From assembly GCF_964204645.1 (NCBI RefSeq), contig NC_134036.1, forward strand, positions 10,767,859-10,831,858: a stretch of 64,000 nucleotides of DNA. The letters are read 5' to 3'. Below the pieces are notes generated by a model that did no database searches, had not been told where the DNA came from, and worked only from the letters and a program-made list of their open reading frames with translations. This DNA comes from Tubulanus polymorphus (lineage: Eukaryota > Animalia > Nemertea). Numbering within the stretch: the first letter of the stretch is position 1; every line of letters begins with the position of its first letter. A program made the position numbers and the translations under genes. Of this stretch, positions 32,783-62,379 are shown in pieces.

Positions 32783-32854
32783 AGTAATTGGAATATGTGG
32801 GTTTCATACCAGAGGGCGAGAGGGCGAGACACCACTCATCACCACAAGTAATTT
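32783..32854 (+). repeat. Left TIR
   Basis: Exact reverse complement of 49462-49533. Confidence 0.95.
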
Positions 32855-32867
32855 GTTTTCCTTATAA

Positions 32868-33131
32868 ATGGGAGACAGTGAGTTCCAAACAGAAAAAAGT
32901 GATGTTAATGAAAATCAATATTATTGTCCATATTGTAAAAAATACATCGATAAACCTTACATGGAAAATGTTAGAAATTATATTGATTCACTAGAAATAA
33001 AAGATACAATTGAAATTTCAGAAATATGCCGTAGTAAAATTGTGACACACATAAACAGTGAGAACTGTATCTGGATAAATAGATGCTTGTTATATACAAG
33101 GGGAAGTAATCCCACTCATCACCACAAGTAA
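32868..33131 (+). pseudogene. Internally deleted duplicate of the pPolB N-terminus
   Basis: NQYYCPYCKKYID is fused to KPYMENVRNYIDSLEIKDTIEI; both blocks occur about 100 aa apart in ORF 47334-49418. Confidence 0.85.
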
Positions 33132-33147
33132 TTTGTTTTCCTTATAA

Positions 33148-33474
33148 ATGGGAGATAGAAAAGCATTCTTAGCAACAATAAATAACAGAATAAAACCAGC
33201 AAAAAAACAATTTGAAATAAAAAAGTTAGTTGATGTTACAAAAGAAATTGAACATAAAATATTGAAATTAGAAAAGATAAAAACTAAATATGGAGAGAAA
33301 GTATCAGCTAATTTAAGCTACTGTAATGTTAGTACATCACGAGAATTTAAAGTGTTTTTACCCGATAAATGGGTTTCATTGAGTACTGAGGAATTGAAAG
33401 ATTTAGTAGGATTTAAAATAATCTATCATGGGAAAAATGAAGATGGCCATCTTGATTTAGAAATTATTGATTAA
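33148..33474 (+). CDS. Small conserved Polinton protein, possibly OB-fold ssDNA-binding
   Basis: KKL..KTKYG..VFLPDKW..IYHGK pattern; homologue in the second element at about 62000-62340. Confidence 0.55.
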   Translation: MGDRKAFLATINNRIKPAKKQFEIKKLVDVTKEIEHKILKLEKIKTKYGEKVSANLSYCNVSTSREFKVFLPDKWVSLSTEELKDLVGFKIIYHGKNEDGHLDLEIID

Positions 33475-33668
33475 ATTAAAAAAAAATAAATTAATAAAAA
33501 TAATGAATATCTAGAATCCGAAATGACTTATCTGAACAATTTAATTGCTCCGCATAGATGGTGCCATAAACGGCACCCACACAGTGATAGACAAAAGTAG
33601 TGAGATGGTGCCGTACGGCACCCACACGGTGATATTCAATTATTTTTTTTTGCTTTTTTTCTAAAATA

Positions 33669-34037
33669 TTAATCCTTTTTTTTTATTATCAATTTTGGAA
33701 TTTCAGAAGTATTTTCATTTTTGATAGCAGTTGTTTCAGAATTACTAATATCATGAATTTTATTTGATTTCTTATACCAATTACACCCAATCAAAATGAA
33801 TACAATTACAAATCCAACTGTAAAATATAAATATTTATCAAATATTCTGTTATCAGAAGGAGTAGAAATAACAATATTTTCACCATTTTTATTAACATTT
33901 TTATTACTTATTTTTTCTTTTACAGCTTTTTTATATTCTTGTGATTTAATTCCTAATTGTCGAGACCATTCAATTTGTTTCTGAGTTCTCGGTTTTTTCT
34001 TCACAGTTAATTCCTTCACTTCTTTCACCTCGCTCAT
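33669..34037 (-). CDS. Small basic protein with one transmembrane segment
   Basis: 122-aa ORF, TAAATG start, hydrophobic YLYFTVGFVIVFILIG. Confidence 0.65.
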   Translation of the reverse strand: MSEVKEVKELTVKKKPRTQKQIEWSRQLGIKSQEYKKAVKEKISNKNVNKNGENIVISTPSDNRIFDKYLYFTVGFVIVFILIGCNWYKKSNKIHDISNSETTAIKNENTSEIPKLIIKKKD

Positions 34038-34575
34038 TTATTATAGAAATATTTTTACTTTCAATATTTGAAAATGTTATAACCCCAGTTGATAATAATG
34101 TCATAAATCCACCTAATTGAAATGATAAATATCCAATACATTTATTTAATTCAGTCATAACTAAATAATCATTTTTTAAATCGGAATATAATTTATTTTC
34201 ATTTTCAATTGGTAGTATATAATTACATAATTTACTTTAACCTTTTACTACATTTTCTGATATCGCGTCATTAATTCTAGCTGTTCTCGCGGCTTCATAA
34301 ATTTTAAATAATCTAATAATTTCATCTGATTTCATTGTATCTAATTCATTATAAGTTAAATTTTTACCGACAAAATTTTTACATTTTCCAGATGCTATTA
34401 ATATTTCTAATTGATGTTTACAATAAAGATAATATTCATAATTATTATTTGTTGTAACATTATTTAAAGCACCATCATCTGGAGTTAATTTTGTTTCTGT
34501 TATTCCTAAATCATCTAAAGTTTTTTCAATTGGAACATCACCATTTTTAGATTTTATTTTCTTTTCACCTACCAT
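33970..34575 (-). pseudogene. Polinton-like hypothetical gene interrupted by an in-frame TAA at 34237-34239
   Basis: ORFs 34237-34575 and 33970-34158 share a frame and read through VVKG*SKLCNYILPIENE. Confidence 0.65.
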
Positions 34576-34607
34576 TTATATAACAAAAAAATTAGTTGTG
34601 ATGTTGC

Positions 34608-34845
34608 AACTAGAATTTAACTAGAATTTAACTAGAATTCAACTAGATTAACAAGCTAGTTGAAATATTGTTGTTTTTATTTATTTATTGTTAAATCTAG
34701 TTGATTTTTGTTTCAACTACTAACAACTAGAATTCAACTAGAATTAAAATAGATTAACAAGCTAGTTAAAATATTGTTAAATCTATTTGATTTTTGTTAC
34801 AACTACCAATAACTAGAATTCAATTAGATTAACAAGCTAATTGAA
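34608..34845. repeat. Internal non-coding array of AACTAGA / CTAGTT motifs in both orientations
   Basis: About three larger units of AACTAGAATTCAACTAGATTAACAAGCTAGTT. Confidence 0.8.
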
Positions 34846-34846
34846 T

Positions 34847-35455
34847 TTAAATAAATTCATATTTAAATGGGTGTTGTAATCTAAATAGTAATTTTGATCT
34901 TTTAATATTTTTCAACTCATCCATATATTCATTATGTAAATCATGTGGAATAATATCATTTTCCTCAAGTGCATTTTTCATCGATTTTCTATCTTTATTG
35001 TAGAATAAAACTAGAAATCTAATGTTTTCTCTAAAGTCTTTAACAATTGAATTATATTTCTGATTTAAAACCCAAGTTGTTATCCCAAAATGTCTACCAG
35101 AGAAAGCTAAATAACATAACTCACTTTCTCTAATTTTAGAATCATGTAAATTTGCACAATCATCTATGATAAATAATGTATTTGATCCTTTATAAATATC
35201 AATTGCTATTTTTATACAATTATCTAAATTTTCTTTTACTGTTTTAGGATCTAATATAATAAATTTATTATTTCTAGTAATATTTCTATCATAAGTTTGA
35301 TTAAATTCATATGTTGGACAAAATAATACTATATTATCAAAATAGTTTTTGTAAATAGTTTCTAATAAATTTAATATAAAATAAGTTTTTCCACAATTTG
35401 TTACACCAGAAATTAACATATTATGAGGCTCAAATATAAATAATTCCTTATTCAT
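34847..35455 (-). CDS. Genome-packaging ATPase (A32/FtsK-like)
   Basis: Walker A SGVTNCGKT, Walker B LFIIDD, SGRHFGIT..LNQ. Confidence 0.92.
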   Translation of the reverse strand: MNKELFIFEPHNMLISGVTNCGKTYFILNLLETIYKNYFDNIVLFCPTYEFNQTYDRNITRNNKFIILDPKTVKENLDNCIKIAIDIYKGSNTLFIIDDCANLHDSKIRESELCYLAFSGRHFGITTWVLNQKYNSIVKDFRENIRFLVLFYNKDRKSMKNALEENDIIPHDLHNEYMDELKNIKRSKLLFRLQHPFKYEFI

Positions 35456-36583
35456 TTATATATTTTTAATTTTACTTGATAATATCCATTCATTGAATTT
35501 ATCTGGCCATCCAACCCATTTTACTAAAGAATATTTTTTTCTTTTAATAGTTTTTGTTTTTAATACTTTTTCAATTTTATATTCTTGTTCTAGATTTTCA
35601 GTAGTTAAACTTAATTCTTCTTCGTAAAAGTAACCATCAACTTCTTCACCATCTAAATCTTCTAATTTATAGACATATGGTTTTGTTGTTATTACCTTTT
35701 TTATTTTATATATTTCTCTAGTAAAATTTCGATCGTATCCTTTATCAAATATCTTTTTATACTTAGAAATTCTAACATTTTGACCAACTTTAAATTTAGG
35801 TTCACCAAAATCATCTACAAGAAATGCTCCATATAAATTATTCCAAACAATTTCAGCATTTTCAGGTTTTCTAGCATCAATAGGTTTCATTCCAATAGAA
35901 GAATGATAAGAATTATTATATCCTTCTATCAATTTTGGTAAAACATCAATCCATTTAAAAGTATTATTTGCTGTAAAATATTTCCACATTCTTGTTCTTA
36001 ATGTTCTATTAAATCGTTCAACAACTGCTGCTTTTTTATCTGATTTTGTTGAAAAATATTTAATATTATGATTATCTAAGAGTTCATGAACAAGTGAATT
36101 ATCAAATTCTTTTCCATCATCAAATTGTATTTTTTCTGGTTTTAGTTTATCATCCGAAAGAAATTTTCTTAAAACATTTGATGTTTGTACAGCATCTTTT
36201 CTATAAAGTGGGAAGCTCCATACATAACGACTAAAAATATCAATTATATTCAATAACCACCAATAATCATCATTATCTTTCTTAACATTTTTCATATCAA
36301 TTAAATCTCCTTGCCACTGTTGATCTACATAACTTACCATAGTTTTACGAGTTTTATATTTTCTAACAATTTTTTTATGTGTTGTATATGTTGGTTGTTC
36401 TAACATAAATTCATTTATATCTTTATATTTAACTAAATTTTGTGGGATTATCTTATCTAATTTATCTTGTTTTACTTTACGCCATATATTTTTAGTAGAA
36501 GAATAAGCAACCGAACTCTCAGGGTTGTAATATAAATTTCTTAAATATTGTTCTTTAGTATTAGGAGTTTTTTTACCACTCAT
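35456..36583 (-). CDS. Retroviral-like (rve) integrase with C-terminal chromodomain
   Basis: QWQGDLIDM, IDIFSRY, QFDDGKEF, VVERFNRTL; YKIEKVL...LVKWVGWPDKFNEWI. Confidence 0.96.
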   Translation of the reverse strand: MSGKKTPNTKEQYLRNLYYNPESSVAYSSTKNIWRKVKQDKLDKIIPQNLVKYKDINEFMLEQPTYTTHKKIVRKYKTRKTMVSYVDQQWQGDLIDMKNVKKDNDDYWWLLNIIDIFSRYVWSFPLYRKDAVQTSNVLRKFLSDDKLKPEKIQFDDGKEFDNSLVHELLDNHNIKYFSTKSDKKAAVVERFNRTLRTRMWKYFTANNTFKWIDVLPKLIEGYNNSYHSSIGMKPIDARKPENAEIVWNNLYGAFLVDDFGEPKFKVGQNVRISKYKKIFDKGYDRNFTREIYKIKKVITTKPYVYKLEDLDGEEVDGYFYEEELSLTTENLEQEYKIEKVLKTKTIKRKKYSLVKWVGWPDKFNEWILSSKIKNI

Positions 36584-36613
36584 TTATATATCCTTAATTT
36601 TAACTTTATATTT

Positions 36614-37861
36614 CTAATATTGAATACTATTTAATTGTGAATTTACAATATTTAATTGCGCGTCAGATATAATATAAATCTGCATTTTAAAATTTTTGAT
36701 TCCTTTATTCTTTTTCATGAATAATTGTATTCCATCTTTAGTGTTTTGTAGTTTTTTTCCAGAACCATGTAATGAATTATCTTCAGTTGTTCTAAAATCT
36801 AACCATAATGCATATTTATTACCGGTATAATAATCAATTTGATTAATATTACAATTTTCAAATGATTTTACTTTTTCATTCATAAAATGTTTTCTAATTT
36901 CTGGCCATTGATCAATCATTCTCATTCCTTGACAAAATATTTTATTCGCTATTCCTTCGATAGTTATTTCTACTTTTGTTATTTCAGGATTATAATAATT
37001 ATCAACATTTATTGCACCATTAGAATATGTTGCAATAGTAAAAAATATTAATATACCTTTAATAGATCTTCTTGGGAAGTTAATATTCTCATTAATAATT
37101 TCATCATTTGCATTAATAGTTACAGTTTTAAATTTATCAATATAATCATATAATAATGAAAATCCTTGATTGTATTGAGTTTGAATTGTGCTAGCAATAT
37201 TTTCATTAGTTACTGTGTTATATTCTAAACATATATTCGATAATTTATAACCCATATCTTTAACAACGCTAGATAATACAATTTCATTTACAGGAGCAAA
37301 TGTTATCTCAAATATAATATCTTCTTGAATTGCGTATTTATATAAAGGTGCATTATTATTTATCAATTCAAAGTCTAATGGAATTTTATATTTGCTTCCA
37401 TATATACTTTTAATCAAATTATCTACACCATTATTTACTACTGCGTTATTGGCTTCAGATCTTAATTTATTTTGGTTTTCTGATTGAATACCCTGAAATA
37501 TCATATTATTTCTATTTTCTTTAGTTAACCATAAATCTTTATAATGTGAAAATAAATTATAATCATCTAATGAGAAAACTGTTTCTGGACCAATCTTTAT
37601 TGTTAACTTTTTAATCAAATATCTTCCAACATTATCAACAACATAATTATTATTATTACCGATTACTTTTATATCAGCTGATAAATAAATACTATTTGGA
37701 ACATAAAAAGTATTTTGTGTTAATCGAGGAATCCTCACGTATAAAGTTTCATCGGGATTAATATTTGAAGGGTTATGAGTAATTATATGATGTGATCTTT
37801 CTGCTTTAATAGCATTAGATATTCTATGATTCTTCGAAGGACTTATATAACTCCCACTCAT
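36614..37861 (-). CDS. Major capsid protein (double jelly-roll, adintovirus-type)
   Basis: 415 aa, beta-rich; THNPSNINP, NICLEY, RSIKGIL, YALWLDFRT..D..LHGSG and YIISDAQLNI motifs typical of this capsid family. Confidence 0.85.
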   Translation of the reverse strand: MSGSYISPSKNHRISNAIKAERSHHIITHNPSNINPDETLYVRIPRLTQNTFYVPNSIYLSADIKVIGNNNNYVVDNVGRYLIKKLTIKIGPETVFSLDDYNLFSHYKDLWLTKENRNNMIFQGIQSENQNKLRSEANNAVVNNGVDNLIKSIYGSKYKIPLDFELINNNAPLYKYAIQEDIIFEITFAPVNEIVLSSVVKDMGYKLSNICLEYNTVTNENIASTIQTQYNQGFSLLYDYIDKFKTVTINANDEIINENINFPRRSIKGILIFFTIATYSNGAINVDNYYNPEITKVEITIEGIANKIFCQGMRMIDQWPEIRKHFMNEKVKSFENCNINQIDYYTGNKYALWLDFRTTEDNSLHGSGKKLQNTKDGIQLFMKKNKGIKNFKMQIYIISDAQLNIVNSQLNSIQY

Positions 37862-37905
37862 TTATTTAACAAAAAAATTAATTATTTATTTTTTGATATC
37901 ATGGT

Positions 37906-39348
37906 TTACTTGATATTTTTTGATATCATGTTTACTAAACCAAAAATAATAGCACTTACAACTGTAATTAAAAATAAAATAATATGTTCAGCAGCAAAGT
38001 TAAGAATGTTTCCTGCAGATTTCAATATAAAACCAACAATTGATGCAATAACTCCTGGTAATGCTGCAGCAGATTTCTTTGACAGTTCCCATAAATATTT
38101 TGCTAATTTCATTAAACCATCCTTAACTTTATCTTGTATAGAATTATTGCCTGGAGGTTTATCTGGTTTATTGGGAGTGGGAGTAGGAGTAGATTTCAAA
38201 GCATTTGATATTGCTAAACCAATTGTTGTAAATAACATAGTTACAGCTGTTAGAATTGAAAGAATTGTTATTCCTTCTAATTTAAATAATAACTTCATCC
38301 TGTCTTTTAATGATATTTCAGAATTTGGTTTAATCAACAAATCTTTAAAAATAATATTTAATCTATTAATATTATAATCATTTGATTTTAATAATAATTT
38401 AATTTCTTCTTTCTGTACTTCTAAATTATCTTTTAAATTACTAATTTCTTTTTCTAAAAGTAATTCTTTTTGCCTATATTCTATTTCATCAATTACTTGA
38501 TGATCTAAATCAGACTTTAATTGTTCTATTTCTTTATTTTTATCAGTTAATTCTTTTTCCAAATACATAATTTTTTGATCTCTTATACTTTTATTATGTG
38601 CAATTTTATCAGATGCAAGTCTTATACTAATAATTTCTCTAATTGCTTTATCAGAAAATATATCTAAATCTTCTAATTCTTGATCTGTTGCATCAAATAA
38701 TCCATTCGGTAAAAGTTTTTCAATTGGAACTTTATTTGATCTAAATTTACTATTTTTGGAAGTTATATTCTGTTCAGAAGTTGTTTCTGTTTCTGATTTC
38801 TTTTTGATTATTTCAAATAATTCATTAATTCTTTGTTTAAATACATCTATATTATCATCTATTTCTTTTTGTGTAACATCAGTTATTTCATTACTATTAC
38901 TTATTATTTTAATTCTATCTGGTTTTAATTTTTCTAAAGTTGATTCTAATAATATTTTATTTTTATTATTTTTATAAGTGATATAAATATAATAATCACC
39001 TTTCAAACGATAATAACATTTACCATTATTTAAAAATTTCAATTGATCTGCTAAAAGTCCAACGTCTTCATCATTTATGTTAAAATTAGATTTTTCAATT
39101 AAATCTTCTAATTTAGGTATTTTGTTTAAATTATCTAAATCTTGTTTTACTAAATTTGGGTCTAAATTTTCAGGATTTAATTGTGATTCAGCATTTTTAA
39201 TATAATCAGGCATATTTAAATTATTATTATATTCTGGTTCATTACCATCATTAAAACTTGTTTCATCAAAATCAGGTGGTTGTTCATCAGTTATGTTAGG
39301 TTCATCAAAAGGATCCATTCCAATATCTTCTCCACCTTCTACATCCAT
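37906..39348 (-). CDS. Coiled-coil protein with C-terminal hydrophobic helices (putative membrane-active virion protein)
   Basis: Acidic N-terminus, heptad region, EGITILSILTA and KSAAALPGVIASIVGFILK segments, C-terminal TM. Confidence 0.7.
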   Translation of the reverse strand: MDVEGGEDIGMDPFDEPNITDEQPPDFDETSFNDGNEPEYNNNLNMPDYIKNAESQLNPENLDPNLVKQDLDNLNKIPKLEDLIEKSNFNINDEDVGLLADQLKFLNNGKCYYRLKGDYYIYITYKNNKNKILLESTLEKLKPDRIKIISNSNEITDVTQKEIDDNIDVFKQRINELFEIIKKKSETETTSEQNITSKNSKFRSNKVPIEKLLPNGLFDATDQELEDLDIFSDKAIREIISIRLASDKIAHNKSIRDQKIMYLEKELTDKNKEIEQLKSDLDHQVIDEIEYRQKELLLEKEISNLKDNLEVQKEEIKLLLKSNDYNINRLNIIFKDLLIKPNSEISLKDRMKLLFKLEGITILSILTAVTMLFTTIGLAISNALKSTPTPTPNKPDKPPGNNSIQDKVKDGLMKLAKYLWELSKKSAAALPGVIASIVGFILKSAGNILNFAAEHIILFLITVVSAIIFGLVNMISKNIK

Positions 39349-39364
39349 TTACATAATGAAAAAA

Positions 39365-40702
39365 TTAAAATTTAAAATATAATATTCCTCCTATAACAAT
39401 TCCTATACAAGTTATAGCTAATTTAGTATTTTCATGGGATTTATTATCATCATTTAGTTTAATTATATCATGTTGAATTTTATCGGTTTTAATATCACCG
39501 TGTGGATGCCGTACGGCACCATTTTCTATAGTATTGTAATCTTTTATTTTGGAATCATTATTTAATTTAATATTATTAGTTTTAGTTTCTGTTGATTGAA
39601 TATGTTTTTTATTTTTTTCACCTTCCATTAATTTTGGAGCAGTAATAATCTTTTTATTTATATCATTTAATCCAATTGAATTATTTATTGTTGCAGTTTT
39701 AATTAGATTATTATAACCAATTATATTTCCCATCTTTAATACTAAATCATTAGAAATAATTAATAGATTAGGTCCTATACAATAATTTAATCTAATATGT
39801 GATTTATCTAAATAATTTTGATATCTAACAATGTTTTCTGGAATCGATCTATTTTTATCATTATGAATGGAATCTTCAAATAATACTTTGAATTGTTTCT
39901 GCGCATCAAATGAAGTACTATTATTTCCAACTATTGGTGATCTTGTTTCAACTTGTGCACCTAAAATACATATCAAATAAGTTCTAATTGATTGATTTAT
40001 TCTTTGTATACCGGGTTTTGTAAATCCTTCACTATAAGATTCAATAAAATAAACCCAACCATTATTATTATGAATTTTATAATTATGATAAGCTCCAATT
40101 CTATGCATATAATCAATTCTTTTTATTTCATACTGTTCACCAACACCTTGCAATTTACCATGCGCTCTAAAATCGAAATTAATATTTATATTAAATTCAT
40201 TACATATTTTATAAAACTTGGATATATTAATATTATTATCCAATTCTTTAAAATATTTTGATCCAGGTAAAGGGCATTCTAATTCATTTAATATAATTCT
40301 AATTTGAAATTATACATGAAATCTAAATATTGTATGAATGAATTTTAAATCAGAATATTTCAAATTTTTATCTAAGTTATTCAAGTGATCATGCCAACTT
40401 ACACCACAACCAGCTGTTGCACAATGAACAGCAAAATTTAATTGATTCTGCCAATATTTCATATTAGATTTTACTTTATATATATTATATTCATCTCGAG
40501 TAAAAGTAACTTCATATGTATTAAATATATTTTCCATTTTAGAAATAAAATAGTTTGTTTCAGTAACATAAATTTCTAAATTAATCAATGAAGGTAAAAC
40601 TAAATTTTTATATATTATCATGTTACTAAAATCTATTGCTGGAGTATTATATTTATAATATTCATGTGATTTATTATATTGGAAAACTTTTGGAAACCCC
40701 AT
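39365..40702 (-). pseudogene. Conserved adintovirus-type hypothetical gene with an in-frame TAA at 40310-40312
   Basis: ORFs 40310-40702 and 39365-40243 are in frame: WQNQLNFAVHCATAGCGVS...FRFHV*FQIRIILNELECPLP. Confidence 0.75.
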
Positions 40703-40830
40703 TTATATAACTAAAAAATTAATAATTTATTAATTCTTTTAATAATTTATCTTGTTCTTCAACTGTTATATGGCCATTTAAACTTATTATATAATCTAGT
40801 GTGTTCTTTAATTTATTAATTTCTTTTATA

Positions 40831-41154
40831 TTAGATTTTATTTTTTTCTTTATTACTTTTTATATTTAATTTTGAACTTATACCAGTTAAAACACTTGAA
40901 CTTAATCCTAATACACCAATTGATATAGCTAAATGTGTTAATGGACTGAATATTGCTAGAAATGTTATTACAGAACTAATTGTAACCGAACCACTGATAA
41001 TAAGATAATATATAATTTTACTTTTTAAATATTTTTTCTTTTTTATCTTTAAGTCACTTTCAAATTCTAATATTTGTTTTTCTAAATATATTTTTAATTT
41101 AGTTTTATTTATATCATGAGGAATAATATCAATACTATCAACTTTATCTTCCAT
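40831..41154 (-). CDS. Two-TM small membrane protein, probably truncated by a frameshift in an A-run
   Basis: Two hydrophobic segments; an alternative frame continues KEINKLKNTLDYIISLNG. Confidence 0.6.
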   Translation of the reverse strand: MEDKVDSIDIIPHDINKTKLKIYLEKQILEFESDLKIKKKKYLKSKIIYYLIISGSVTISSVITFLAIFSPLTHLAISIGVLGLSSSVLTGISSKLNIKSNKEKNKI

Positions 41155-41174
41155 TTATTTAGCAAAAAAAATTA

Positions 41175-41597
41175 CTAATTAGTAAACTTATAAGCAACAA
41201 ATATAACAATAACTGTTCCACCTAAAATCCAAATTATTTCATATTTCTGTTGTTCTTTACTTGGGGTATAATAATCTGATAATTTAGGTTTGTATAGATG
41301 TAATTTTTCTTTATTTGTTACTGCGTTATATAAACTCATTGCATCATCAACTGATTGAAAATCTCTATGTGAAATCTTCTGATCATATAATTCTTTATTG
41401 ATGTAATCCATATAGTTTTGTCTCTTTTCTCTATATTCTTCTGCAGCTTTATTGTATTTCTCTAACGCTAAGTTATGTCTTCTTTGTTCTCCTAATGAAC
41501 TATTTTTATCAATATGTTTAAATAAATATCCACCACCAGTAAATGCTAAAGCGTTAACAATTGCTGATCCTATAATAGTTATAATTGCAGAAGCCAT
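41175..41597 (-). CDS. Conserved small virion-type protein
   Basis: IGSAIVNALAFTGGGYLF, EQRRHNLALE and KLSDYYTPS motifs; C-terminal TM. Confidence 0.75.
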   Translation of the reverse strand: MASAIITIIGSAIVNALAFTGGGYLFKHIDKNSSLGEQRRHNLALEKYNKAAEEYREKRQNYMDYINKELYDQKISHRDFQSVDDAMSLYNAVTNKEKLHLYKPKLSDYYTPSKEQQKYEIIWILGGTVIVIFVAYKFTN

Positions 41598-41622
41598 TTA
41601 TTTAGCAAAAAAAATTATGCAT

Positions 41623-41838
41623 TTATATGGGAGGAATATATTTTTGTTTTTCCAAATAATCAATAGTTAAATTAGATAAAGTAACTGCTAATGTTAATTT
41701 TAAAATATCATTTATATCAAATCTATCAACATTAACACTTTTGAATACTTTTTTTAATACCATTGAATAACCAACCGTTCCAACTGATAGTAATGCGCCA
41801 TTATATAATCCAGTTATTATCCACTTATTATCACTCAT
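41623..41838 (-). CDS. Small hydrophobic protein
   Basis: 71 aa, TAAATG start, tightly packed with its neighbours. Confidence 0.7.
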   Translation of the reverse strand: MSDNKWIITGLYNGALLSVGTVGYSMVLKKVFKSVNVDRFDINDILKLTLAVTLSNLTIDYLEKQKYIPPI

Positions 41839-41841
41839 TTA

Positions 41842-42195
41842 TTAATTAAAAAAATTACTATCATTAAAATATTTAGTTAACTTAGTGACTATTAATTCAA
41901 CATTTATTTTATTACTAGTTTCATTTGTATATATTTCAATTATTATTTTTTTAATATCATCGATGATAAAATCTTCATCTAATTCATAAAATCTTAAAGA
42001 TTCTCTAATTAAATTAGTAATCTTTTCTACATTTAAAGTTTCTTTATCTATTGTTGTTTCATACTCAAATGTTGTTTCATTAGAAAATGCAATATTTTTG
42101 ATATGTGTAATTACATCATTAATGTTAAATTTCATTTCTTTCTCACGTTTAAAATCAAACCCAAAACATATACTCGGTCCAACAGTTATATTCAT
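41842..42195 (-). CDS. Hypothetical protein
   Basis: 117 aa, TAAATG start, in the gene array. Confidence 0.65.
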   Translation of the reverse strand: MNITVGPSICFGFDFKREKEMKFNINDVITHIKNIAFSNETTFEYETTIDKETLNVEKITNLIRESLRFYELDEDFIIDDIKKIIIEIYTNETSNKINVELIVTKLTKYFNDSNFFN

Positions 42196-42211
42196 TTATA
42201 TAGGTGAAAAA

Positions 42212-42964
42212 TTACTCTTTACATCTTACAACTAATTCATAAATTATAGGAAAGTTATTCAAATCAATTAAGTATCCATTATGATTTCTAATTTCTAATC
42301 TAAAATTATTAAATTGAGGAATACAAGGTTTGAAATCACATTCAGCTAAATTATAATTTATTTGCGTTCCAAATTGTTTAACATTCTTCATTGGTAAAAT
42401 GTTTAGTAAACCAGAATAACAAGTTATATCTTTAGTTGCTTCGAATGTTTTTGTAGGATCGATTAAATTGCAATAAATATAAAAGTGTGTAAAAGGTATT
42501 ATATTTGGTGTAGTATCAACATTTGAATAATATTTATCTGGTGTAATTCCTAATAGTTTAGCTATAGGTTTTTTAACTGAAAATTGATATTTTTCATTAT
42601 GAGCTAACCTTATCTTCATTTTATTAGAATTATCACTTTTCAAAAATCTAATGTTAAATTCAGCATCACTACCTAATTTGATCCGAGCTTTTTTATTAAT
42701 TTCCTGCGCTAATGTATCTAAATTATATAATCCTGGTTTTAAAAATAGATAATTCCATTTATCCTTACTCTTGTTTGAAAAAAATAAATGTTCAAGACTT
42801 TTAGCTGTTATATTATAAAATGAGTTACAAAAACTTATATTAACTAATTTTAAATCTACGCAATTCTTAAATTCTCTATCTAATTGTACTAATAAATTAT
42901 GTGATTTATAATTTGTAAGTTTTCTAGAATCAATAAATATTCTGTATTCTTTCAATTCTACCAT
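42212..42964 (-). CDS. Minor capsid (penton-like) protein
   Basis: IFIDSR, LKPGLYNLDTL, FYIYCNLID, FRLEIRNHNGYLIDLNNFPIIYEL. Confidence 0.8.
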   Translation of the reverse strand: MVELKEYRIFIDSRKLTNYKSHNLLVQLDREFKNCVDLKLVNISFCNSFYNITAKSLEHLFFSNKSKDKWNYLFLKPGLYNLDTLAQEINKKARIKLGSDAEFNIRFLKSDNSNKMKIRLAHNEKYQFSVKKPIAKLLGITPDKYYSNVDTTPNIIPFTHFYIYCNLIDPTKTFEATKDITCYSGLLNILPMKNVKQFGTQINYNLAECDFKPCIPQFNNFRLEIRNHNGYLIDLNNFPIIYELVVRCKE

Positions 42965-43032
42965 TATTTATAACATAAAAAAATTACCGCTCATCACTAA
43001 AAATTAATTTTAATAAAATTTTTCCTTAATAA

Positions 43033-44346
43033 ATGGAAGTGAAGATAGCATGCGAAATTTGTGGTGAACTTCTAAGAAAAAGTAATATGGCTCGACATAT
43101 GAAAAAACATGATGAAAATTATAAACCCCCTAAAATAAACTGTCCAAATTGTAATAAAACATTCTCTAGAAATTATTTCAAAAAACATTTAGAGAAGTGT
43201 AAAAATAATAACTTAATAGTTAATGTTGACAGTAACGAAAGTAATAATAATTCTGTTGAAGTTGAACCTGAAATTATTTGGAAAAGACCTTTCTTATTCT
43301 ATGATAAGGATAATATAAAAGATCATTTCTGTGAGCCTTGTCGAATAAAATATAACCCTGAAAATATAGAAGATTGGGAGAATCATCAATTTCGTAAAGT
43401 ACATATAGATAAAATTTCTAATAAATTTGAAACTGAATTCAATGCAAGAAAAAATAATTTATTAGAAAAAATAAAATATGAGAAAACGTTACCAGATAAT
43501 GAAGAAACAGTTGAAAAGTTAGAAAAACAATATAATGAATTAACAAGAAAAACATATTATTGTAAATATTGTAAATTGATTATTACAACAAGTAATTCAA
43601 ATCTACATGATAGAACAATAAAACATAAAGAAAACGTAAGAAAATACCAAGAGCTTAATGAAGATCTATTACTAATAGATTATAAACAAAAATGCCCACA
43701 ATGTATTTATGCGACCTTAAGGCAAGAAGGTACTGTGTTATTTTGTGTTGATTGTGGATGGCAAAGGAATTTATGGGGTGAAGAAAAAACTAGAAATTTT
43801 CTTATAGAACCAAAATTAAATTATCTTGATGAAATTTTTAAAATATTTTCTATAGAAGATCATACACCAGAATATATGCAATGGCTTGAAAAAATGAAAA
43901 TAATAGAAAATAAAAATGGTGAAATAACTAAAAAAGATATTATAAAAACAATTATTCCACCAACATTTAACAAAAAACAAAAGAAAATGTATTTATATTT
44001 ATTATTTAACGATTATTATGAAAAACCTAAATTAACAGAAGAAGATATGGAAAATATAAAAAAAATATTTAAACAAATATTAATGTATCATTTGGAAAAT
44101 AGAATAACAGATTCAATAAATTATGAATTCTTTTTAAATAAGATTGTAAATTATTTAAACCTAGATATTATAATTCCATTTGATGAATTAACAAACAAAA
44201 AGAAACAAAGAGAGCGAGATGAAATGTGGAACAAGATAGAACTTTATTTAAATGAGAAAAATGGAATGGAAGAAGAACCTGAACAATTAAATGAAAATGA
44301 AGAAGCCAATAGTGATTTCGAGTTTGATGATATAGATCCATTTTAA
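43033..44346 (+). CDS. Zinc-finger protein with C-terminal VLTF3 (poxvirus A2)-like late transcription factor domain
   Basis: Four N-terminal C2H2/matrin-like fingers, a CPQC-x12-CVDCG ribbon, then SINYEFFLNKI...KKQRERDEMWNKI. Confidence 0.7.
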   Translation: MEVKIACEICGELLRKSNMARHMKKHDENYKPPKINCPNCNKTFSRNYFKKHLEKCKNNNLIVNVDSNESNNNSVEVEPEIIWKRPFLFYDKDNIKDHFCEPCRIKYNPENIEDWENHQFRKVHIDKISNKFETEFNARKNNLLEKIKYEKTLPDNEETVEKLEKQYNELTRKTYYCKYCKLIITTSNSNLHDRTIKHKENVRKYQELNEDLLLIDYKQKCPQCIYATLRQEGTVLFCVDCGWQRNLWGEEKTRNFLIEPKLNYLDEIFKIFSIEDHTPEYMQWLEKMKIIENKNGEITKKDIIKTIIPPTFNKKQKKMYLYLLFNDYYEKPKLTEEDMENIKKIFKQILMYHLENRITDSINYEFFLNKIVNYLNLDIIIPFDELTNKKKQRERDEMWNKIELYLNEKNGMEEEPEQLNENEEANSDFEFDDIDPF

Positions 44347-47300
44347 TAACCATAAGGTAATGTTTTTATACCATCATCTGAAATATGCCTTTTATCATCA
44401 AATGGATTTAAACTAGTTTTTTCAACTTCATTAATGTACATCTCATGATCTTCTGATCTTAAACAATTCATCTTGTGTTTCATTACAATTGATTTATATA
44501 AACACTTTATATAATCTTGAAATTCTATATGTTTATCAACCACATGTTTTGTTATTCCTTTTAACTTTTTAGCTTCATGATCTTTTGTTCTGTAACTATA
44601 CATTTTACTTCCTATCCCAACAAATTCAATCATTTCATCACCTCCTAATTCATCTTTAAACTTACCAGGAATCTTTTTATTATCATTACTAAACAATTCA
44701 TGATCTTTGGGGTAATTGCTAAAATCAAAATAATGTTTTAATGTTTTTAAGTCTTTTGTTATATCATTTGTCTTGATTTTTAGTATGTAGGCGTCAGTAT
44801 TGACCGCTATTAATGGAAATCCACAGTTAAATGTACCATCTTCAGTTGATAAATCATAAACATAATCTGTTGGGTTATATATTTCAAATAAATCCTTATC
44901 TTCTTCTGTTAACTCATTTTCTACATGGCTTAAATTAAAGCAATTTGGTTTAGATTTAATCAATCCAATATTCATATTGAAGCCTAATGAATTACATAAT
45001 ATATTTAATCCTGATATAGCAACTTTTCCTTTTTGAGCTAAAGATATTGTTTTGCGGTTTTTGAAACTTTTTGAACCATCTGCAGCATAGAACCGAATGA
45101 AGAACCATTTTCTTAAATTATTTTTTGCATTTAATACATAATCTGGAACTATCTTTTCTTTAGTTGAAGTATTACTTTTCACTATTGCATGAGTGTAGAA
45201 TTCGTTATTATATATATATTTATAGCAAAATCTTTAGGATTATTCACATGTATTCTATAACATTGCGATGATTTCATAACATCTATGATTTTAAATGTTT
45301 TATGTGAATAAACTTCTTCACAGAATTTCTTAATTCTTTCTAATAATTTTAAGTCTTGATTGCATAAATACCAACAATATTTAGTTCCACTAACATAATT
45401 ATACACACCTGCTGAACCATCACCCATGAAAAATCCTTTGATAAAATATTCTTTTTCTTCTAATGTTTCGGGTTCTATATTATAAATATTATTAATTATT
45501 TCATCAAATGACATATGATTCATTCTTGGGAAAAATCTTTTATGTAATAATTCATCTCCAATTTTTATATCAGTTGGTTTTATTTCATTACCATTTTGTT
45601 TAATCAAACTATGGTCTTCAGTAACATCTACAAATCCTAATTTAGTTCTAACTCTATAGATTTTCTTATTTGTTTTATGTCTAATAATATTCTTTAATTT
45701 TTTCCATCCATTTCTTGTCCAAACATCCATTAAACCATTTATTTGTATAAGTTCTTTTTCACCATATGAAATATAAGATTTATTTTGATTAGGAATTATT
45801 TGTGAAATTCTTCTTACCAATATTTTATTATTACATTTTAATAATATTGGGGTGTCAGCCGTTACAGAATCAAAATATAATATTTCTATATGTTTTTCCC
45901 CAAAAAGTGGCTGCAAAACATTGTAATAAAAATTATACATCAATAATTTTTATATTTGCAAAACAGTTGAACCTATAAATATAGGTTTATTAAATTTTAA
46001 TGATGTTCTTTTTAATTTAACTGCTGTTAAATAATCTTCAAATCTTTTATTTCCTAAATGTCTAGGACTTGATTGTAAATGTCTTAATCTTTCAGAATTA
46101 TTTACTAATTCAATATCATTTCTATTTCTAATATTTTCACATGTTTTACCATAAAAACTATTATTCATTAATTTGAAGAAATCTTTTTCAAAATCTGTTT
46201 TTGATATGGTTCTCTGTTGAGTATTGAAATCTATATATTTTTCTAACCACTTCGATTGATTAAATTCAATATATCTATGTACTTTCTTTAATTTCATTCC
46301 TTGTTTTAGATAAAATTTTAACATTCTATAATGAACAATATAATTGTATTTATTATTTTGAGTAAGTATTAATTTTTCTGTAAAAACATGATCTTTCGGT
46401 TTTATTTTCTTCTGGTATTCACTTAAATAACTATCATCTACAGTTAAATGTTCTGGGCAATAAGGTAAGTTTCTTGTTTTAAACTTTATATTTTCAGGAT
46501 ATTCTAAATCAACTACAAAGAAATAACCAATTGGTGCTTCATCTTTTAAACTAATAATTGCGCTTTCCCAATCAGTTTTATCACCATTTTCAACTTCTGT
46601 TAATATAAAATTTTTATATGGTTGAGGTTGCATCATTGCCCAACCATATAAATTATTGGCGTCAATATATAATAATTTATATTCATCATTTGCTTTAAAA
46701 TACCTATCTCCCATAACACCACTAATTCCACCTCTAATTGATTTTTCAAATAATAAAACCATATCTGCTTCTTTTAATAAATCTAATTCTACATTTGTAT
46801 ATTTTAAACCACATTGCCAGGTTAAACCAGGACTAGAATAACAATAACAAGGATCAACATTAAAATGATTCAAATTAACTTCTCTAAATTTTTCAAATAT
46901 GTCAGCTAATATCATAACATCTGATTTTAAATATAAATCAACTAATTCGCCATGATTTTTCATCTTAAAATAGTTCCAAATATTTAATGTTCTATTAAAC
47001 ACTTCGTCTTTCACATACTCCTCTTTTAATTTATCATAAAATTGATCTTTTAATAATTCTGTTACATTAAAATCATTATGTGTTTTATAAAATGAATAAG
47101 GAATTGCGCCTTTATATCTCAATAATTTAAAATCTTGTTCATTTGGATAATAATATCGAGTTATAACAAAATCATTATCAACTAAACTTTTTGATAAATT
47201 ATCTAATGAACTTGCTAGAAATCTATAAGAATCTAAAAATCTAATGCAACCAAATTGAAATGAAATATAATTTTCAGATGTTTTAGCTAATAGTTTAAAA

Positions 47301-49418
47301 TCATATTTTCTTACATTTACACCATTCATAGCATTATATTCTTCTATTTTCTTGATTAATTGCACCCAATTTTCCCGATAATTGTTTTATAAATAGATGG
47401 GTATCATAGCCTGATAAATTATGAAATAATATTGGTACGAAATTAACTTTCTTAGCTTGTAAATTGCAATCTTCATGAGCAGCTCCACGATATTTTGAAT
47501 TCAAATGATCATGATCTCTAACTCTTTTATCAAATGAATAAAAACGTTTTTCACAATAACAACAATGAGTTGCATAATTAAAATCAATTTCATCTTCTTT
47601 TGTCATAACTATTCTTTTATTTTTGTTCAATAATTTTGCAAAATCACTTTTTAATTCAATAATTTTATCACAAAAATCATTAACTACATTTTCACCTCTA
47701 AAAGAAATATATTGACTTTCATATAATTCGGGATAATTTGATTTTATGTAAATTCCATAAGCAGCAGCTCTTAGATGAACTTTTTTAATTGTATTTATAA
47801 TTGGTGGGTCTTGTATTGTGTCTTCATTTAATTCATTTCCTTTATCCATTGATTTTAATAATTGCTTTTTGTTATATATTTCTTTTCTATCTTGATCAGT
47901 TAATTCTTTATTCAACGATTCAAAATCCCCATAAATTACAAATGGAACAATATTTTTAAATTTATGATTAGTAAATTTCAATTTATAATCTTTTTCTGTT
48001 GGCATTATTAATTTACAAAAATCTTTATTATCACATAATTCTTTATGTTTTAATAATGTATTCTCGGTCATAAATTTAGATAAACATTTTCTACATAGAT
48101 AAATTTTACGATGATGATCACTTTCTGTTCTAAAGAATAAATCAATTTGTTTTAACCACACATAATGTTCATTTTCATCTTTTTTATAATATAACAAATC
48201 TATAGCATTTTCATCATCATAATATTCTGTTAAATATAAAGCTTCCAATGTATAATCTTTAATATTTTCACCTTTTGTCTTTGGTAATTGCATTAATTCG
48301 AATACATTTATTTTTAAATTATTAATTTTTTCTATTTTAGGAATCATTTTTATAGTTACTGGATATTGATCAATTTTATATAATGTTTCATATTTCCGGT
48401 AATTTGTTATTCTAAAACTATGCGTCATATCTTCTGTTTGTTGTAAACAACTAATAATTGACCATAGAAAACATTTATTATCTTCATTTTGAACATTTAT
48501 TACTGCTTTTGTTGTAAATGGTAATTTAATATAAGATGATGCTTTAATATCCTTTTCTGTTGTAAAGTTTGAATCATTTTTAAACATTTTATTACTTTTT
48601 GATGTTTTATTCCTTTTTGTATTATAAACATTTAAATCTAAATATATTATTTCATTCAATGTTAAGCCAGAACCCTCAAAATATCTTTCTTCAATATGAC
48701 GTTTAAATTCATTAAATATTTTTTCTAACTTCTCTTTTATTTGTGTTTTTGAAATTATTTCTTCAGAGTGTGTTTGAATATTATAATTCATTTTTTCTTC
48801 TGACTTTATAAAACTTACTTTCCCAGAGATACTAATTTTTGGATATTCAACATCTGTTATCAAATCTAGTATTTTTTCTATTATTTCATTAAATTTACTA
48901 TAATCTTCTATTGTTGTACCTTTAAAAAATCTAAATATAATAGCTGCAGGACCAATTTTACTATGTAATGTTTCTAAGATTTCAATTGTATCTTTTATTT
49001 CTAGTGAATCAATATAATTTCTAACATTTTCCATGTAAGGTTTATTTGAAATGGATTTAGTTTTTGAAGTTGATTCTTTTACTTTTTGAGGTTTATTATC
49101 AAAATAATCTTTTCCTAAAACATTATTACTCAAATTTTGGTGGTGTTTTTGTGATTCGAGATGTCTATTATAATTCCTTTTTACTATAAATTCATTACAA
49201 ACTTCACATTTTATTTCATCCACATTCATATTTTCTAATCGTTCTTTTCTTTCATTGGAATTTTCTGGAGTTTCAAAATCTATTACATTTTTTATATGAT
49301 TTGCAGTTTTTTCATGTCGTGTTTTATGAGATGTATCGATGTATTTTTTACAATATTGACAATAATATTGATTTTTATTGACATTATTGTTTTCTAGTTG
49401 GTGTTCATTCTCCCCCAT
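44343..49418 (-). pseudogene. polB: Protein-primed family B DNA polymerase (OTU-like and Endo VII-like domains), intein-containing, with three lesions
   Basis: DNKCFLWSII..HYVW; VIYGDFES; VRDHDH..YRGAAHEDCNL; FHNLSGYDTH; LYIDANNLYGWAM; KLMNNSFYGK; YFD|TD; KLKGI; PFDDKR. Lesions: 22-bp insertion at about 47357-47384, TAA at 45950-45952, 2-nt slip at about 45210. Confidence 0.95.
44799..45868 (-). mobile_element. Intein with LAGLIDADG homing endonuclease in PolB motif C (about 356 aa after removing a 2-nt slip)
   Basis: Block A SVTADTPILL, block B VDVTEDHSL, KGFFMGDGS and RFYAADGS, block F YVYDLSTEDGTF, terminal Asn followed by Thr. Removal restores ILYFD-TDAYIL. Confidence 0.93.
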
Positions 49419-49461
49419 TTATTAGGAAAAAAATTACTTGTGGTGATGAGTGTTAGGAAAA

Positions 49462-49533
49462 AAATTACTTGTGGTGATGAGTGGTGTCTCGCCCTCTCGC
49501 CCTCTGGTATGAAACCCACATATTCCAATTACT
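49462..49533 (-). repeat. Right TIR
   Basis: Exact reverse complement of 32783-32854. Confidence 0.95.
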
Positions 49534-59472: not shown

Positions 59473-60420
59473 TTATTTGATTGAATTTCTACAGCAGATT
59501 TTCATACAGAAATATTCACGAATTTCTCGTCCCATTAAAAGATATATGTAGAAATTTACCACATAATTACACATTACGAATTGTGTGAAAATGTCATATA
59601 GAAATTCTTTCTGTTCCGTAAGGATTGGTAAAAATGCAGCAATAGTGGTTGGAAGTGTGAATATTGCAAATGCGAGTGAAACTGTTACAAGCATCATCGT
59701 TGTACGTTTCGATTTTGTAGTTTTCTTATCAGACGAAAGCATTTTTGTACCTCTGAATAACTGAATAATTATGATAGAATTTGATATCAGAATCGACGAT
59801 AAAGGCAAAACAAAAGCGTAGACACCAAGTGGAGTAAGAAATTTCATTTGGACAATTAATTCATAGTAACATCCGAAAAACTGGTCGGAAAAATGTATCG
59901 ACAAAGTAGCGGGAAGTTGAACCAGTACAGTCACTGTAGTAATTATCAATATAGCAAATCTAGCGAATCTAGGTGTGCATATCAAACGAGAAGTGAACGG
60001 AAAGAGAACAACTGCCGCACGTTCTAGAGATATAGCTACCAATAACCAGGAACTGCTAGAATTGGCAACTGCCATCAATATTTCATATATCTTACAACTG
60101 ATCAGTGAATTCATGATATATACAAGACTAGTATTTAGATTCAATAGAATAAACTGTAAAACAGGCATCAGTGTAAAATTTATGCAGTACAAGAAATCAC
60201 AGACTGACAAAATGACAAGATAGTTAGCGTAAGATAAACTGCGGAATTTGCGACTTGTCATTATAAGAAAAGTAGCTGAATTTCCAAAGACTCCAAACAG
60301 AAACACGATAGGCAGAATGACCAACGACACAGTACGGTAAGTTCCAGACCTGTTCTCCACCGACATTAGAATGATGTAACTGCTATACGTTCGACCAATT
60401 CGAATCTTAGTTGAATTCAT
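59473..60420 (-). CDS. Single-exon class A (rhodopsin-like) GPCR, peptide/chemoreceptor-like
   Basis: Seven hydrophobic segments; GN, LSVCD, C in TM3, SLER..V.FP, FTLP, NFYIY. Confidence 0.92.
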   Translation of the reverse strand: MNSTKIRIGRTYSSYIILMSVENRSGTYRTVSLVILPIVFLFGVFGNSATFLIMTSRKFRSLSYANYLVILSVCDFLYCINFTLMPVLQFILLNLNTSLVYIMNSLISCKIYEILMAVANSSSSWLLVAISLERAAVVLFPFTSRLICTPRFARFAILIITTVTVLVQLPATLSIHFSDQFFGCYYELIVQMKFLTPLGVYAFVLPLSSILISNSIIIIQLFRGTKMLSSDKKTTKSKRTTMMLVTVSLAFAIFTLPTTIAAFLPILTEQKEFLYDIFTQFVMCNYVVNFYIYLLMGREIREYFCMKICCRNSIK

Positions 60421-61434
60421 GATTCACGAGAATTAACTCAGTTCGGTATGCTCCAGACCTGTTCACTACACGCATTATAGCAATGTAACTGTTAAACTGC
60501 ATCTGAGCTGAATTCATGATTCGATTAAGTGTCAGCGGTATGTGGACTGATTGTATCAATAGACTGAAGCTACGTGCAAGCCATGACGTATATTCATTAA
60601 CGCAAGCAATTTATTGTTCGCATCAAATGAAAAACAAATTTTCAGAAATCTGACTCAATTTACCCAGATTCAGAAATTAAAAAATTTATCACCCCATTGG
60701 CACTCAAGCCGCCCCTATCCGCCCAGACTTACACTACTCAAACCACCCGAATCCGCCCGGCAATTTTTTCGTATGCTGCACGAAAACGGTTATAGTAGGA
60801 TTCGAGCCCAATAGCTTATGATAAACTGCACACCTAAATCCTTGAAATACCGTACAGAAATCAACATCCTCCTATTTCAATTTCTCGAGTATTTCAAGTT
60901 TGAACATGACACATCTGAGCGCTCACTTCGAATCCAAGTAAGTTTGGATTAATTTCGGGGGCGAAAAGGACATGATTTTGGTGGCCCGCCTCATCAAATC
61001 TTACATCATATGAAAACGTTGACTATTTACTACAAATTAACACTAACTTGTTATGCATGGAAATCGAGATCGGAATAGAACTCTGCTCCCCCGAGACTGC
61101 GAACCCCTTTTGTAGAAAGAAGCGGCATTCTTTAAAATCAGATTCTCCCACTCAACTTTTGGCAAGAAGCAGCGACCTAGCTGCCATGACAGTTTTTGGT
61201 AAAGTATATAGCCCTAATGATCTCAAATTAATTTGAAAACTGATTCGCATAACTTAACTGTGGAAATCATGAATTGGAATTGTATTTTACCTATGGAATA
61301 CCGATAGATCTATGCATTTTAATCCAAGTCTTTACAGCACTTCGATGACCGCGTTGTGCTTGTCACGTGATTTTGGTAACAGCGGAAGTTTCGTTCCTTT
61401 ACCTCGTTAGTAGTGATAGGGGATTGCTATACAC

Positions 61435-62345: not shown

Positions 62346-62379
62346 ATAAAATCAATTTTAATAAAAAATTTAGTATTAA

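Follow-up and report, generated by a model that had tools for sequence, protein, structure and literature searches.

Who reads the genes of a Polinton that sits in the genome of an animal? The question is posed by a locus of the marine ribbon worm Tubulanus polymorphus, where the first-pass annotation of our window (the whole stretch of DNA analysed, 64,000 nucleotides) had pointed to a motif resembling poxvirus late promoters at nearly every gene start. It touches on a larger issue. According to the main text of bioRxiv 10.64898/2026.06.19.733378, it is not settled if Polintons of animals live as autonomous viruses or as parasites of large DNA viruses, and virions have yet to be observed. The word 'promoter' occurs neither there nor in the main text of PMC8502044; across the main texts of the Polinton literature examined, promoters are never mentioned.

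An integrated Polinton and its genes

The element (Table 1) has what one looks for in a Maverick/Polinton: terminal inverted repeats and a perfect 6-bp target-site duplication, a protein-primed PolB (broken here) with an rve integrase, and a double-jelly-roll capsid with an A32-like ATPase. These features, along with an animal host and a length of 17 kb, it shares with the Maverick-Polintons and adintoviruses of the Polintoviricetes as described in PMC8502044 and bioRxiv 10.64898/2026.06.19.733378. It differs from them in that no cysteine protease was found and that all its genes lie under a start motif of poxvirus-late type. The cysteine maturation protease family that marks Group 1 Polintons and adenain-bearing adintoviruses is absent from its 20 ORFs, and the element probably belongs to Polinton group 2. 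The model of the major capsid protein (pLDDT 86) matches the capsids of iridovirus, PBCV-1 and mavirus (Foldseek E 6e-16). We rejected a place among the Lavidaviridae, the true virophages: there is no protease, and the relatives of the capsid, which was compared with those of Polinton relatives, are Polintons. No capsid relatives were found in viral contigs.

Nothing among the 20 ORFs resembles an RNA polymerase subunit, TBP, TFIIB or a capping enzyme, and the 38 scanned proteins of relatives include no poxvirus RNA polymerase subunit. Like a virophage-like satellite, the element has no transcription apparatus of its own, and the scanned proteins of its relatives include none either. As assembled, this copy has at least one interrupted gene besides the polymerase; a single stop interrupts gene 40702-39365, whose version in the relative L003 is 442 aa, and the ORF at 40108 is the second half of the gene starting at 40702.

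Table 1. Features of the element and its start motifs (positions in the window)
Feature	Position	Strand	Remarks
Integrated Maverick/Polinton	32783..49533	.	16,751 bp, 23.6% GC; host ~37% GC
Target-site duplication, left copy	32777..32782	+	6 bp
Target-site duplication, right copy	49534..49539	+	6 bp
Terminal inverted repeat, left	32783..32854	+	72 bp, perfect; extends into first promoter-like motif
Terminal inverted repeat, right	49462..49533	-	72 bp
A32-like packaging ATPase	34847..35455	-	Pfam Pox_A32, E 1e-13
Retrovirus-type integrase with chromodomain	35456..36583	-	Pfam rve, E 2.5e-10
Double-jelly-roll major capsid protein	36614..37861	-	predicted fold, Foldseek
Putative penton	42212..42964	-	weak DUF5901 match, E 0.019; label from first-pass annotation
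Zinc fingers fused to VLTF3 (poxvirus A2L family)-like domain	43033..44346	+	domain ~43687-44295
DNA polymerase gene (protein-primed PolB)	44343..49418	-	broken in this copy as assembled
Promoter-like motif (T-tract + TAAATG)	32849..32870	+	87-aa ORF, resembles polymerase N-terminus
Promoter-like motif	33129..33150	+	108-aa ORF; within 44-bp identical copy of left-end unit
Promoter-like motif	34035..34056	-	122-aa ORF
Promoter-like motif	34573..34594	-	112-aa ORF; relatives 206-218 aa
TAAATG of ATPase gene	35453..35474	-	TAA doubles as integrase stop codon
TAAATG of integrase gene	36581..36602	-	
Promoter-like motif of major capsid gene	37859..37880	-	
Promoter-like motif	39346..39367	-	480-aa ORF
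Promoter-like motif	40700..40721	-	gene 40702-39365, interrupted by one stop
Promoter-like motif	41152..41173	-	SLATT-like membrane ORF
Promoter-like motif	41595..41616	-	140-aa ORF
Promoter-like motif	41836..41857	-	71-aa ORF
Promoter-like motif	42193..42214	-	117-aa ORF
T-tract + TAAAT, 3 nt before ATG of putative penton gene	42962..42986	-	
Promoter-like motif of VLTF3-like gene	43014..43035	+	head-to-head with putative penton
Promoter-like motif of DNA polymerase gene	49416..49437	-	close to right terminal repeat

One motif at the start of every gene

TAAATG overlaps the ATG at all 15 coordinates where it had been noted, and the putative penton gene (42964, minus strand) does read TAAATAATG at its start. 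Of the 20 ORFs of at least 70 aa, 15 have the hexamer at their start, as against 39/633 non-start ATGs within the element (Fisher p 9e-14) and 39/428 control ORFs taken from the first ATG after a stop (p 2e-11). Because four of the five ORFs without it are fragments from within broken genes (three from the polymerase, and the one at 40108), the tally for true gene starts is 15/16 for TAAATG and 16/16 for TAAAT. Over the whole window the hexamer is found 104 times where 95.9 are expected, so the signal is positional. A preceding run of T had been claimed for most of these sites, and most, not all, have one: at least five T precede 10/15 TAAATG starts and also the penton start, compared with 5/39 non-start TAAATG, and T stands at -14 in 15/15. 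The proposed comparison with internal in-frame ATGs proved unusable, since an in-frame TAA there is a stop codon (0/75 by construction); out-of-frame and antisense ATGs served in its stead, with TAAATG at 22/299 and 12/212. Composition as the source of the motif was also set aside, the background being only 6% and the motif being retained in relatives' loci of 40-44% GC.

Could the motif speak to the ribosome instead, as an in-frame stop before each ATG or an odd start context in an AT-rich element? We think this very unlikely. TAA directly 5' of ATG is in frame, it is the most frequent stop (58/75), and a purine at +4 is compatible with Kozak; yet TAG or TGA almost never takes its place (1/14 exceptions). 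What the exceptions keep is TAAAT shifted upstream (5/14 against a background of 95/2647, p 9e-5), and the upstream T-tract is fixed: T has a frequency of 0.92 at -12 and 0.78 at -13 in the element clade, and a matrix trained on relatives separates starts from non-starts with an AUC of 1.00. In a sister clade of Polintons TAAATG is found at 2/48 starts, and a purine stands at -3 in 38/48, a Kozak-like context; the one host gene checked has a purine at -3 as well. Stop-start coupling is ruled out, TAA being the upstream gene's stop at just two of 68 starts. From sequence, then, the motif behaves like a promoter or initiator at the DNA level, unlike a Kozak context and unlike a stop-start overlap.

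Nor does it look like a leftover. Promoters inherited from a helper-dependent ancestor and now without function would sit well with a copy whose polymerase is broken and in which at least one other gene is interrupted, but both the terminal repeats and the target duplication remain perfect. Close relatives carry TAAATG at 37/42 homology-validated starts, although their capsids share only 50-76% identity and their genes have been rearranged, which argues for continued selection in the lineage. We consider the relic explanation highly improbable.

Poxvirus or iridovirus?

Vaccinia late promoters, as set out in PMC11980589 and PMC5294985, place TAAAT(G/A) over the start codon, with a T about 10 nt upstream and a short spacer. 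The element shows the same anatomy: TAAAT(G/A) covers the start codon at 15/16 starts, and a conserved T, with other T residues around it, lies some 10 nt ahead of TAAAT. In this respect it resembles the late promoters of vaccinia and mpox (PMC11980589, PMC5294985), from which it differs in having the motif on every gene, with no early or intermediate class seen, and in its longer, more regular T-tract and an A at -18/-17. The poxvirus-late-promoter reading of the first-pass annotation thus holds for anatomy, in vaccinia and in the poxvirus loci we compared, whereas the motif is not exclusive to poxviruses among large DNA viruses and the preference for them is moderate. In large-virus records TAAATG also stands at 29/80 starts of iridovirus-like loci (a label read from gene content), at 11/19 in L348 and at 9/29 in G001, where T occupies -12 and -13 in 8/9.

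Such counts raise the prospect of a satellite with a different master, a large DNA virus outside the poxviruses, iridovirus-like or otherwise, with TAAATG late starts. A matrix trained on iridovirus-like starts separates starts from non-starts with an AUC of 0.86, against 0.95 for the poxvirus matrix. Iridoviruses have a nuclear phase (PMC5294985), so activation of an integrated copy would be easier. The details pull the other way. The iridovirus-like motif is AATAAATG, present in 28/29 iridovirus-like starts and 29/65 of the element clade, and it is without the T-tract (mean T 0.30 vs 0.72). A purine at +4 is found in 64/65 starts of the element clade and 33/33 in poxvirus loci, but is relaxed to 21/29 in iridovirus-like loci; T at -12, where element clade and poxvirus loci alike have their T peak, is found in 60/65, 24/33 and 12/29, respectively. 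On both counts, T at -12 and purine at +4, we therefore regard poxviruses as a moderately better fit than iridovirus-like genomes, and a non-pox helper as rather unlikely. The finer measures are in keeping with a moderate preference. The profile correlates with that of poxviruses at r 0.37 (p 0.017, among orthologues that are non-independent), and by score 10/15 and 38/51 promoters lie nearer to poxviruses, but so do 22/39 non-start sites. T5NT occurs 22 times in the element where 60 are expected; this was not used as evidence because it is unspecific, T5, T6 and A6 being depleted too and distant motif-positive loci showing no avoidance.

A putative late transcription factor of its own

ORF 43033 appears to carry a divergent VLTF3-like late transcription factor domain, newly recognized here. 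The Pfam match (E 3e-5) scores 24.2 bits, below the cut-off of 25; identity is 26-28% over about 200 aa (Atlas 0.88). The layout is that of the VLTF3/A2L family, a zinc ribbon with a C-terminal VLTF3 domain, and a search of 1.84 billion proteins put first, among typical homologues, a VLTF3 of 226 aa that has an A2L zinc ribbon at its N-terminus. In fold comparison, a model of pLDDT 64 built on a VLTF3 alignment had cowpox as its top VLTF3 match. Other searches were less generous: our own profile, made from 72 giant-virus VLTF3 proteins, did not pick up the full-length ORF and gave a weak score to the trimmed domain alone, solved structures gave no match to the model, a word-index search found no VLTF3 relatives, and an Atlas lookup for the domain returned no family.

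VLTF3 homologues have already been reported in Polintons and Polinton-like viruses (PMC11131425, PMC8502044, 10.64898/2026.06.19.733378, in the parts consulted); the VLTF3 citation given in the coral paper had 0 matches in PMC5499653. The present case differs from those in that the domain is fused to zinc fingers, co-occurs with pox-type promoters and stands apart from the giant-virus and L042 type, a grouping drawn from a tree with long branches that includes no named poxvirus.

With such a protein the element might need no helper. As an autonomous nuclear element it would use its own VLTF3-like zinc-finger protein to bring RNA polymerase II of the host to a TAAAT initiator private to the element, the pox likeness being inherited or convergent. 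Mriyaviruses, which have no RNA polymerase but do retain VLTF2 and VLTF3, are believed to be nuclear (PMC11253617), and the zinc-finger–VLTF3 fusion recurs in L003 and other relatives. There is also a CTCATCAC box, with five copies in the element beside four promoters, but it is found in just 2/29 relative loci and so is not conserved. The promoter of the VLTF3-like gene is that of every other gene, which leaves no early class to begin a cascade. L042 encodes a clear VLTF3, yet has TAAATG at only 1/11 starts. Head-to-head TAAATG pairs have start codons 15-30 nt apart in 9/10 cases, leaving almost no room for a templated UTR. An autonomous element is, on balance, unlikely.

A probable satellite in search of its helper

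The reading we favour, and hold to be somewhat probable, is that this Polinton lives as a virophage-like satellite: a large DNA virus of poxvirus type, infecting the same cell, would transcribe its genes with late-phase machinery. We point to a poxvirus-like helper because a pox late signal stands at all 16 starts and a VLTF3 relative is encoded alongside. The helper's late transcription machinery would read the T-tract and TAAAT(G) promoters of an element that has no RNA polymerase, and a 5' poly(A) leader would stand in for the missing 5' UTR and permit translation with T at -3. Since polymerase, integrase, capsid and VLTF3-like gene share one late-type promoter, the element, by analogy with mavirus, would lack an early phase and stay silent until a helper enters the cell. 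Its own polymerase would then replicate it, and it would package itself inside the factory that the helper sets up. More speculatively, the VLTF3-like domain, which probably came from a pox-like virus by capture, would serve to divert or jam late transcription in the helper. Poxvirus transcription is cytoplasmic and the integrated copy is nuclear, which leaves the activation step unexplained.

There are precedents. A CroV late promoter precedes all genes of mavirus, the CroV virophage of Cafeteria, which like our element integrates and has a pPolB and an rve integrase (PMC6723459, in the part consulted). Mavirus, however, is a protist lavidavirus with a demonstrated helper, whereas the element is an animal Polinton with the motif TAAATG and a proposed one. 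Polinton-like viruses in entomopoxvirus occlusion bodies have likewise been proposed to parasitize poxviruses (Barth et al. 2024, PMC11296320); in that case the viruses were physically present in insect occlusion bodies, whereas here the element is integrated in a marine worm and the evidence is its promoter code. The main text of PMC11296320 holds no promoter or transcription analysis. The yeast linear virus-like elements pGKL share the pPolB and a TAAAN initiator, which in their case yields 5' poly(A) leaders (PMC6211774, in the part consulted), but they bring an RNA polymerase and a capping enzyme of their own, and the element encodes neither. Against a poxvirus-type helper stands the host range that PMC4542343 gives for poxviruses, vertebrates and insects.

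More tentatively, and as a possibility we would not put higher, this widespread clade of marine-animal Polintons may consist of integrated virophages of an undiscovered poxvirus lineage of marine invertebrates, reading the helper's late code on every gene, hijacking or blocking the helper with a captured late factor and forming a heritable antiviral reservoir like mavirus in protists. If the favoured reading is right, marine worms should host a poxvirus-like virus that has so far gone unseen. A 22-base promoter common to the whole clade makes the lifestyle question testable by reporter assay, and Polintons could be sorted by lifestyle from sequence only, a TAAATG clade against a Kozak clade. 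Two motif scans of viral contigs (at least 120 loci each) placed no marine poxvirus among the matches listed; among those matches were one orthopoxvirus locus, with the motif at 4/4 starts, two iridovirus-like records and one giant virus.

A motif at every true gene start

Our first-pass annotation had placed TAAATG at 15 gene starts of the integrated Polinton, and all 15 coordinates proved correct. The motif is not enriched across the window as a whole (104 copies against 95.9 expected). It is, as proposed, concentrated at gene starts, found at 15 of the element's 20 ORF starts and at 39 of its 633 remaining ATGs (p 9e-14). Of the five exceptions, four are fragments from within broken genes, and in the fifth TAAAT lies three bases ahead of the ATG, so TAAAT is present at 16 of 16 true starts. 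The motif extends upstream into (G/T)TAATTTTTT, at about -20 to -10, and a matrix trained on relatives only separated the window's 15 starts completely from the 39 non-start TAAATG sites (AUC 1.00). Beside four of these putative promoters sits a CTCATCAC box, in five element copies (32835, 33115, 42990, 49443 and 49474). The window holds six against 1.2 expected, some derived from duplication of the terminal unit, and the box is a possible site for zinc-finger proteins.

Promoter or translation signal

Across 68 motif starts (a near-duplicate locus, L002, was left out), the TAA of the motif serves as the upstream gene's stop in two, and a divergent gene lies opposite in 17. Ten head-to-head pairs carry TAAATG on both strands; in nine, the start codons are 15-30 nt apart, leaving almost no space for templated 5' UTRs. 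Where the full motif is missing, 5 of 14 starts keep TAAAT moved off the ATG, against a background of 95 in 2647 (p 9e-5), which is the pattern expected if TAAAT marks transcription initiation. A signal for translation is thus a very unlikely reading; judged from sequence, the motif looks promoter-like.

We found no report of TAAATG promoters in Polintons in the literature searched (main texts, few from subscription journals), and four papers, PMC11296320, PMC8502044, PMC11131425 and 10.64898/2026.06.19.733378, do not use the word 'promoter' anywhere in their main text. Polinton-like parasites of entomopoxviruses, and virophages that use helper promoters, are already known.

Conservation among related Polintons

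Capsid alignment gathered 81 related loci. TAAATG occurs at 31 of 37 starts where capsid identity is at least 70% (one mis-binned short match included), at 25 of 30 where it is 48-69% and at 29 of 326 where it falls below 48%, against background rates under 5%; related loci at 40-44% GC retain it. In a quick capsid tree (62 rows, 20 short loci dropped, motif labels assigned by us from start counts), the rows divide into a side of 30 with 20 positive and a side of 32 with a single positive. The window falls within a 15-row clade with 14 positive rows. The tree needs eight label changes, partly because several negative rows are decayed copies. When only starts validated by N-terminal homology are counted, TAAATG stands at 37 of 42 in the close clade and at 11 of 17 in the remainder of the side to which it belongs. 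The other clade has it at 2 of 48, and 38 of these 48 starts show a purine at -3. That a motif so distributed is a relic strikes us as highly improbable. Five motif-negative Polintons (L042, L037, L032, L031 and L014) are TATA-rich directly 5' of the ATG and may be adapted to helpers of another family.

The closest near-complete relative, L003, has a deoxynucleoside kinase gene with a TAAATG start (10340-10981, minus strand). A second, decayed relative begins within the window (61820-64000, plus strand); it is ~57% identical over the N-terminal part of the polymerase, and its first starts lack TAAATG. Capsid relatives at 54% identity (cluster P0046) are filed in the database under Bartonella; they come from contigs shorter than 2 kb and are probably host contamination.

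Which virus the motif resembles

Vaccinia late promoters, in the accessible text of PMC11980589 and PMC5294985, carry TAAAT, usually with G as the next base, and a T is conserved ten bases ahead of the motif; polymerase slippage gives their transcripts 5' poly(A) leaders (PMC6211774, likewise). The likeness to them claimed at first pass is partly supported: it held for the anatomy of the motif, but TAAATG at starts is not exclusive to poxviruses. In poxvirus loci (7 of 10 fetched were used), TAAATG marks 39 of 125 starts. The T peak at -12 is 0.73 there and 0.92 in the element clade, and a purine at +4 follows in 33 of 33 and 64 of 65, respectively, against 235 of 327 internal methionines. TAAATG is also found at 29 of 80 starts in iridovirus-like loci (4 of the 14 entered the count; we assigned the family from gene content), as AATAAATG without the T-tract, at 11 of 19 in L348 and at 9 of 29 in a giant virus, G001. 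Five iridovirus-like genomes (L334, L335, L339, L345 and L348) have AATAAATG at about one third of starts, a motif that the accessible text of the promoter review PMC5294985 does not list for iridoviruses. Compared with poxviruses, the element's profile has a correlation of 0.37 (p 0.017, with orthologues that are not independent), and compared with the others, 0.19-0.27; the poxvirus-trained matrix reached an AUC of 0.95 and the iridovirus-trained one 0.86. These sequence comparisons favour, but do not prove, a poxvirus-type helper; a large DNA virus of another kind is an unlikely one.

A VLTF3-like gene

The C-terminal half of the ORF at 43033-44346 matches Pox_VLTF3 just below the cut-off (E 3e-5), and this half shares 26% identity over ~200 residues with one giant-virus VLTF3. 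Its nearest Atlas matches are VLTF3 clusters (0.88, a lead only). An in-house profile of giant-virus VLTF3 missed the full-length ORF. Four proteins emerged from a full HMMER search: three zinc-finger-bearing relatives, one a 96% match to a truncated ORF of L003, and P0183, a VLTF3 of 226 aa that bears an A2L ribbon at its N-terminus and may resemble entomopoxvirus A2L. Together with the element's ORF, these four form a group separate from the VLTF3 of giant viruses and of L042, with a support of 97 and long branches. Cowpox is the top VLTF3 fold match of a weak predicted model, itself built on a VLTF3 alignment. Polinton VLTF3 has been published (accessible text of PMC11131425, PMC8502044 and 10.64898/2026.06.19.733378). 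L042 encodes a giant-virus-type VLTF3 and lacks the motif, so VLTF3 alone does not specify TAAATG.

A possible satellite

The satellite reading, which we hold with moderate confidence, builds on a promoter-like motif on every gene, the absence of an RNA polymerase of the element's own, clade-wide conservation and the VLTF3-like gene. The 20 ORFs scanned include no protease, RNA polymerase subunit, TBP, TFIIB or capping enzyme, and a scan of 38 proteins from the relatives likewise gave no poxvirus RNA polymerase subunit. An autonomous element, using host Pol II through its VLTF3-like protein, seems doubtful to us; mriyaviruses do retain VLTF3 without a polymerase (PMC11253617, accessible text). 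As a satellite, the element would have transcription started within TAAAT by the helper's late machinery, which would add poly(A) leaders, and the integrated copy would stay silent until infection, by analogy with mavirus. Against the proposal stands that the integrated copy is nuclear and the helper machinery cytoplasmic. Mavirus has the CroV late promoter ahead of all its genes (PMC6723459), and other Polinton-like viruses also use helper promoters (10.1101/2022.07.28.501842), as far as the accessible texts go. The element would thus resemble mavirus in having a single helper-type late promoter on all genes.

Element architecture and host flanks

The element has 23.6% GC against ~37% in its flanks. 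One flanking gene, a GPCR, is the single clue to the host and makes a ribbon worm or a relative likely. The element encodes an rve integrase, an A32-like ATPase and a double-jelly-roll capsid, recognised from a structure model with pLDDT 86 and Foldseek matches at E 6e-16. Its DNA polymerase is protein-primed, lies broken into four ORFs and contains an intein that, by our reading, sits at polymerase motif C. Giant-virus polymerases likewise carry inteins at motif C. The intein has a weak match in one giant-virus bin, and the polymerase of an intact relative, L065, has none.

Features of the window
Feature	Position	Strand	Remarks
PC4-domain frame	275-952	-	host flank
Open frame, 1173 aa	6851-10372	+	host flank; no Pfam match
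Zinc-finger-like frame	13031-13582	+	host flank; adjoins simple repeat
Maverick/Polinton, integrated	32783-49533		16,751 bp; perfect 72-bp terminal inverted repeat; 6-bp target duplication
Intein with LAGLIDADG-like domain, in polymerase	45182-45940 and start of 44975-44343	-	Pfam E 1e-5; PI-PkoII E 7e-6
Rhodopsin-family GPCR, intronless	59473-60423	-	62% identity to Tubulanus polymorphus protein

Between the ATPase and a 112-aa ORF lie short, degenerate, non-coding repeats (34610-34845).
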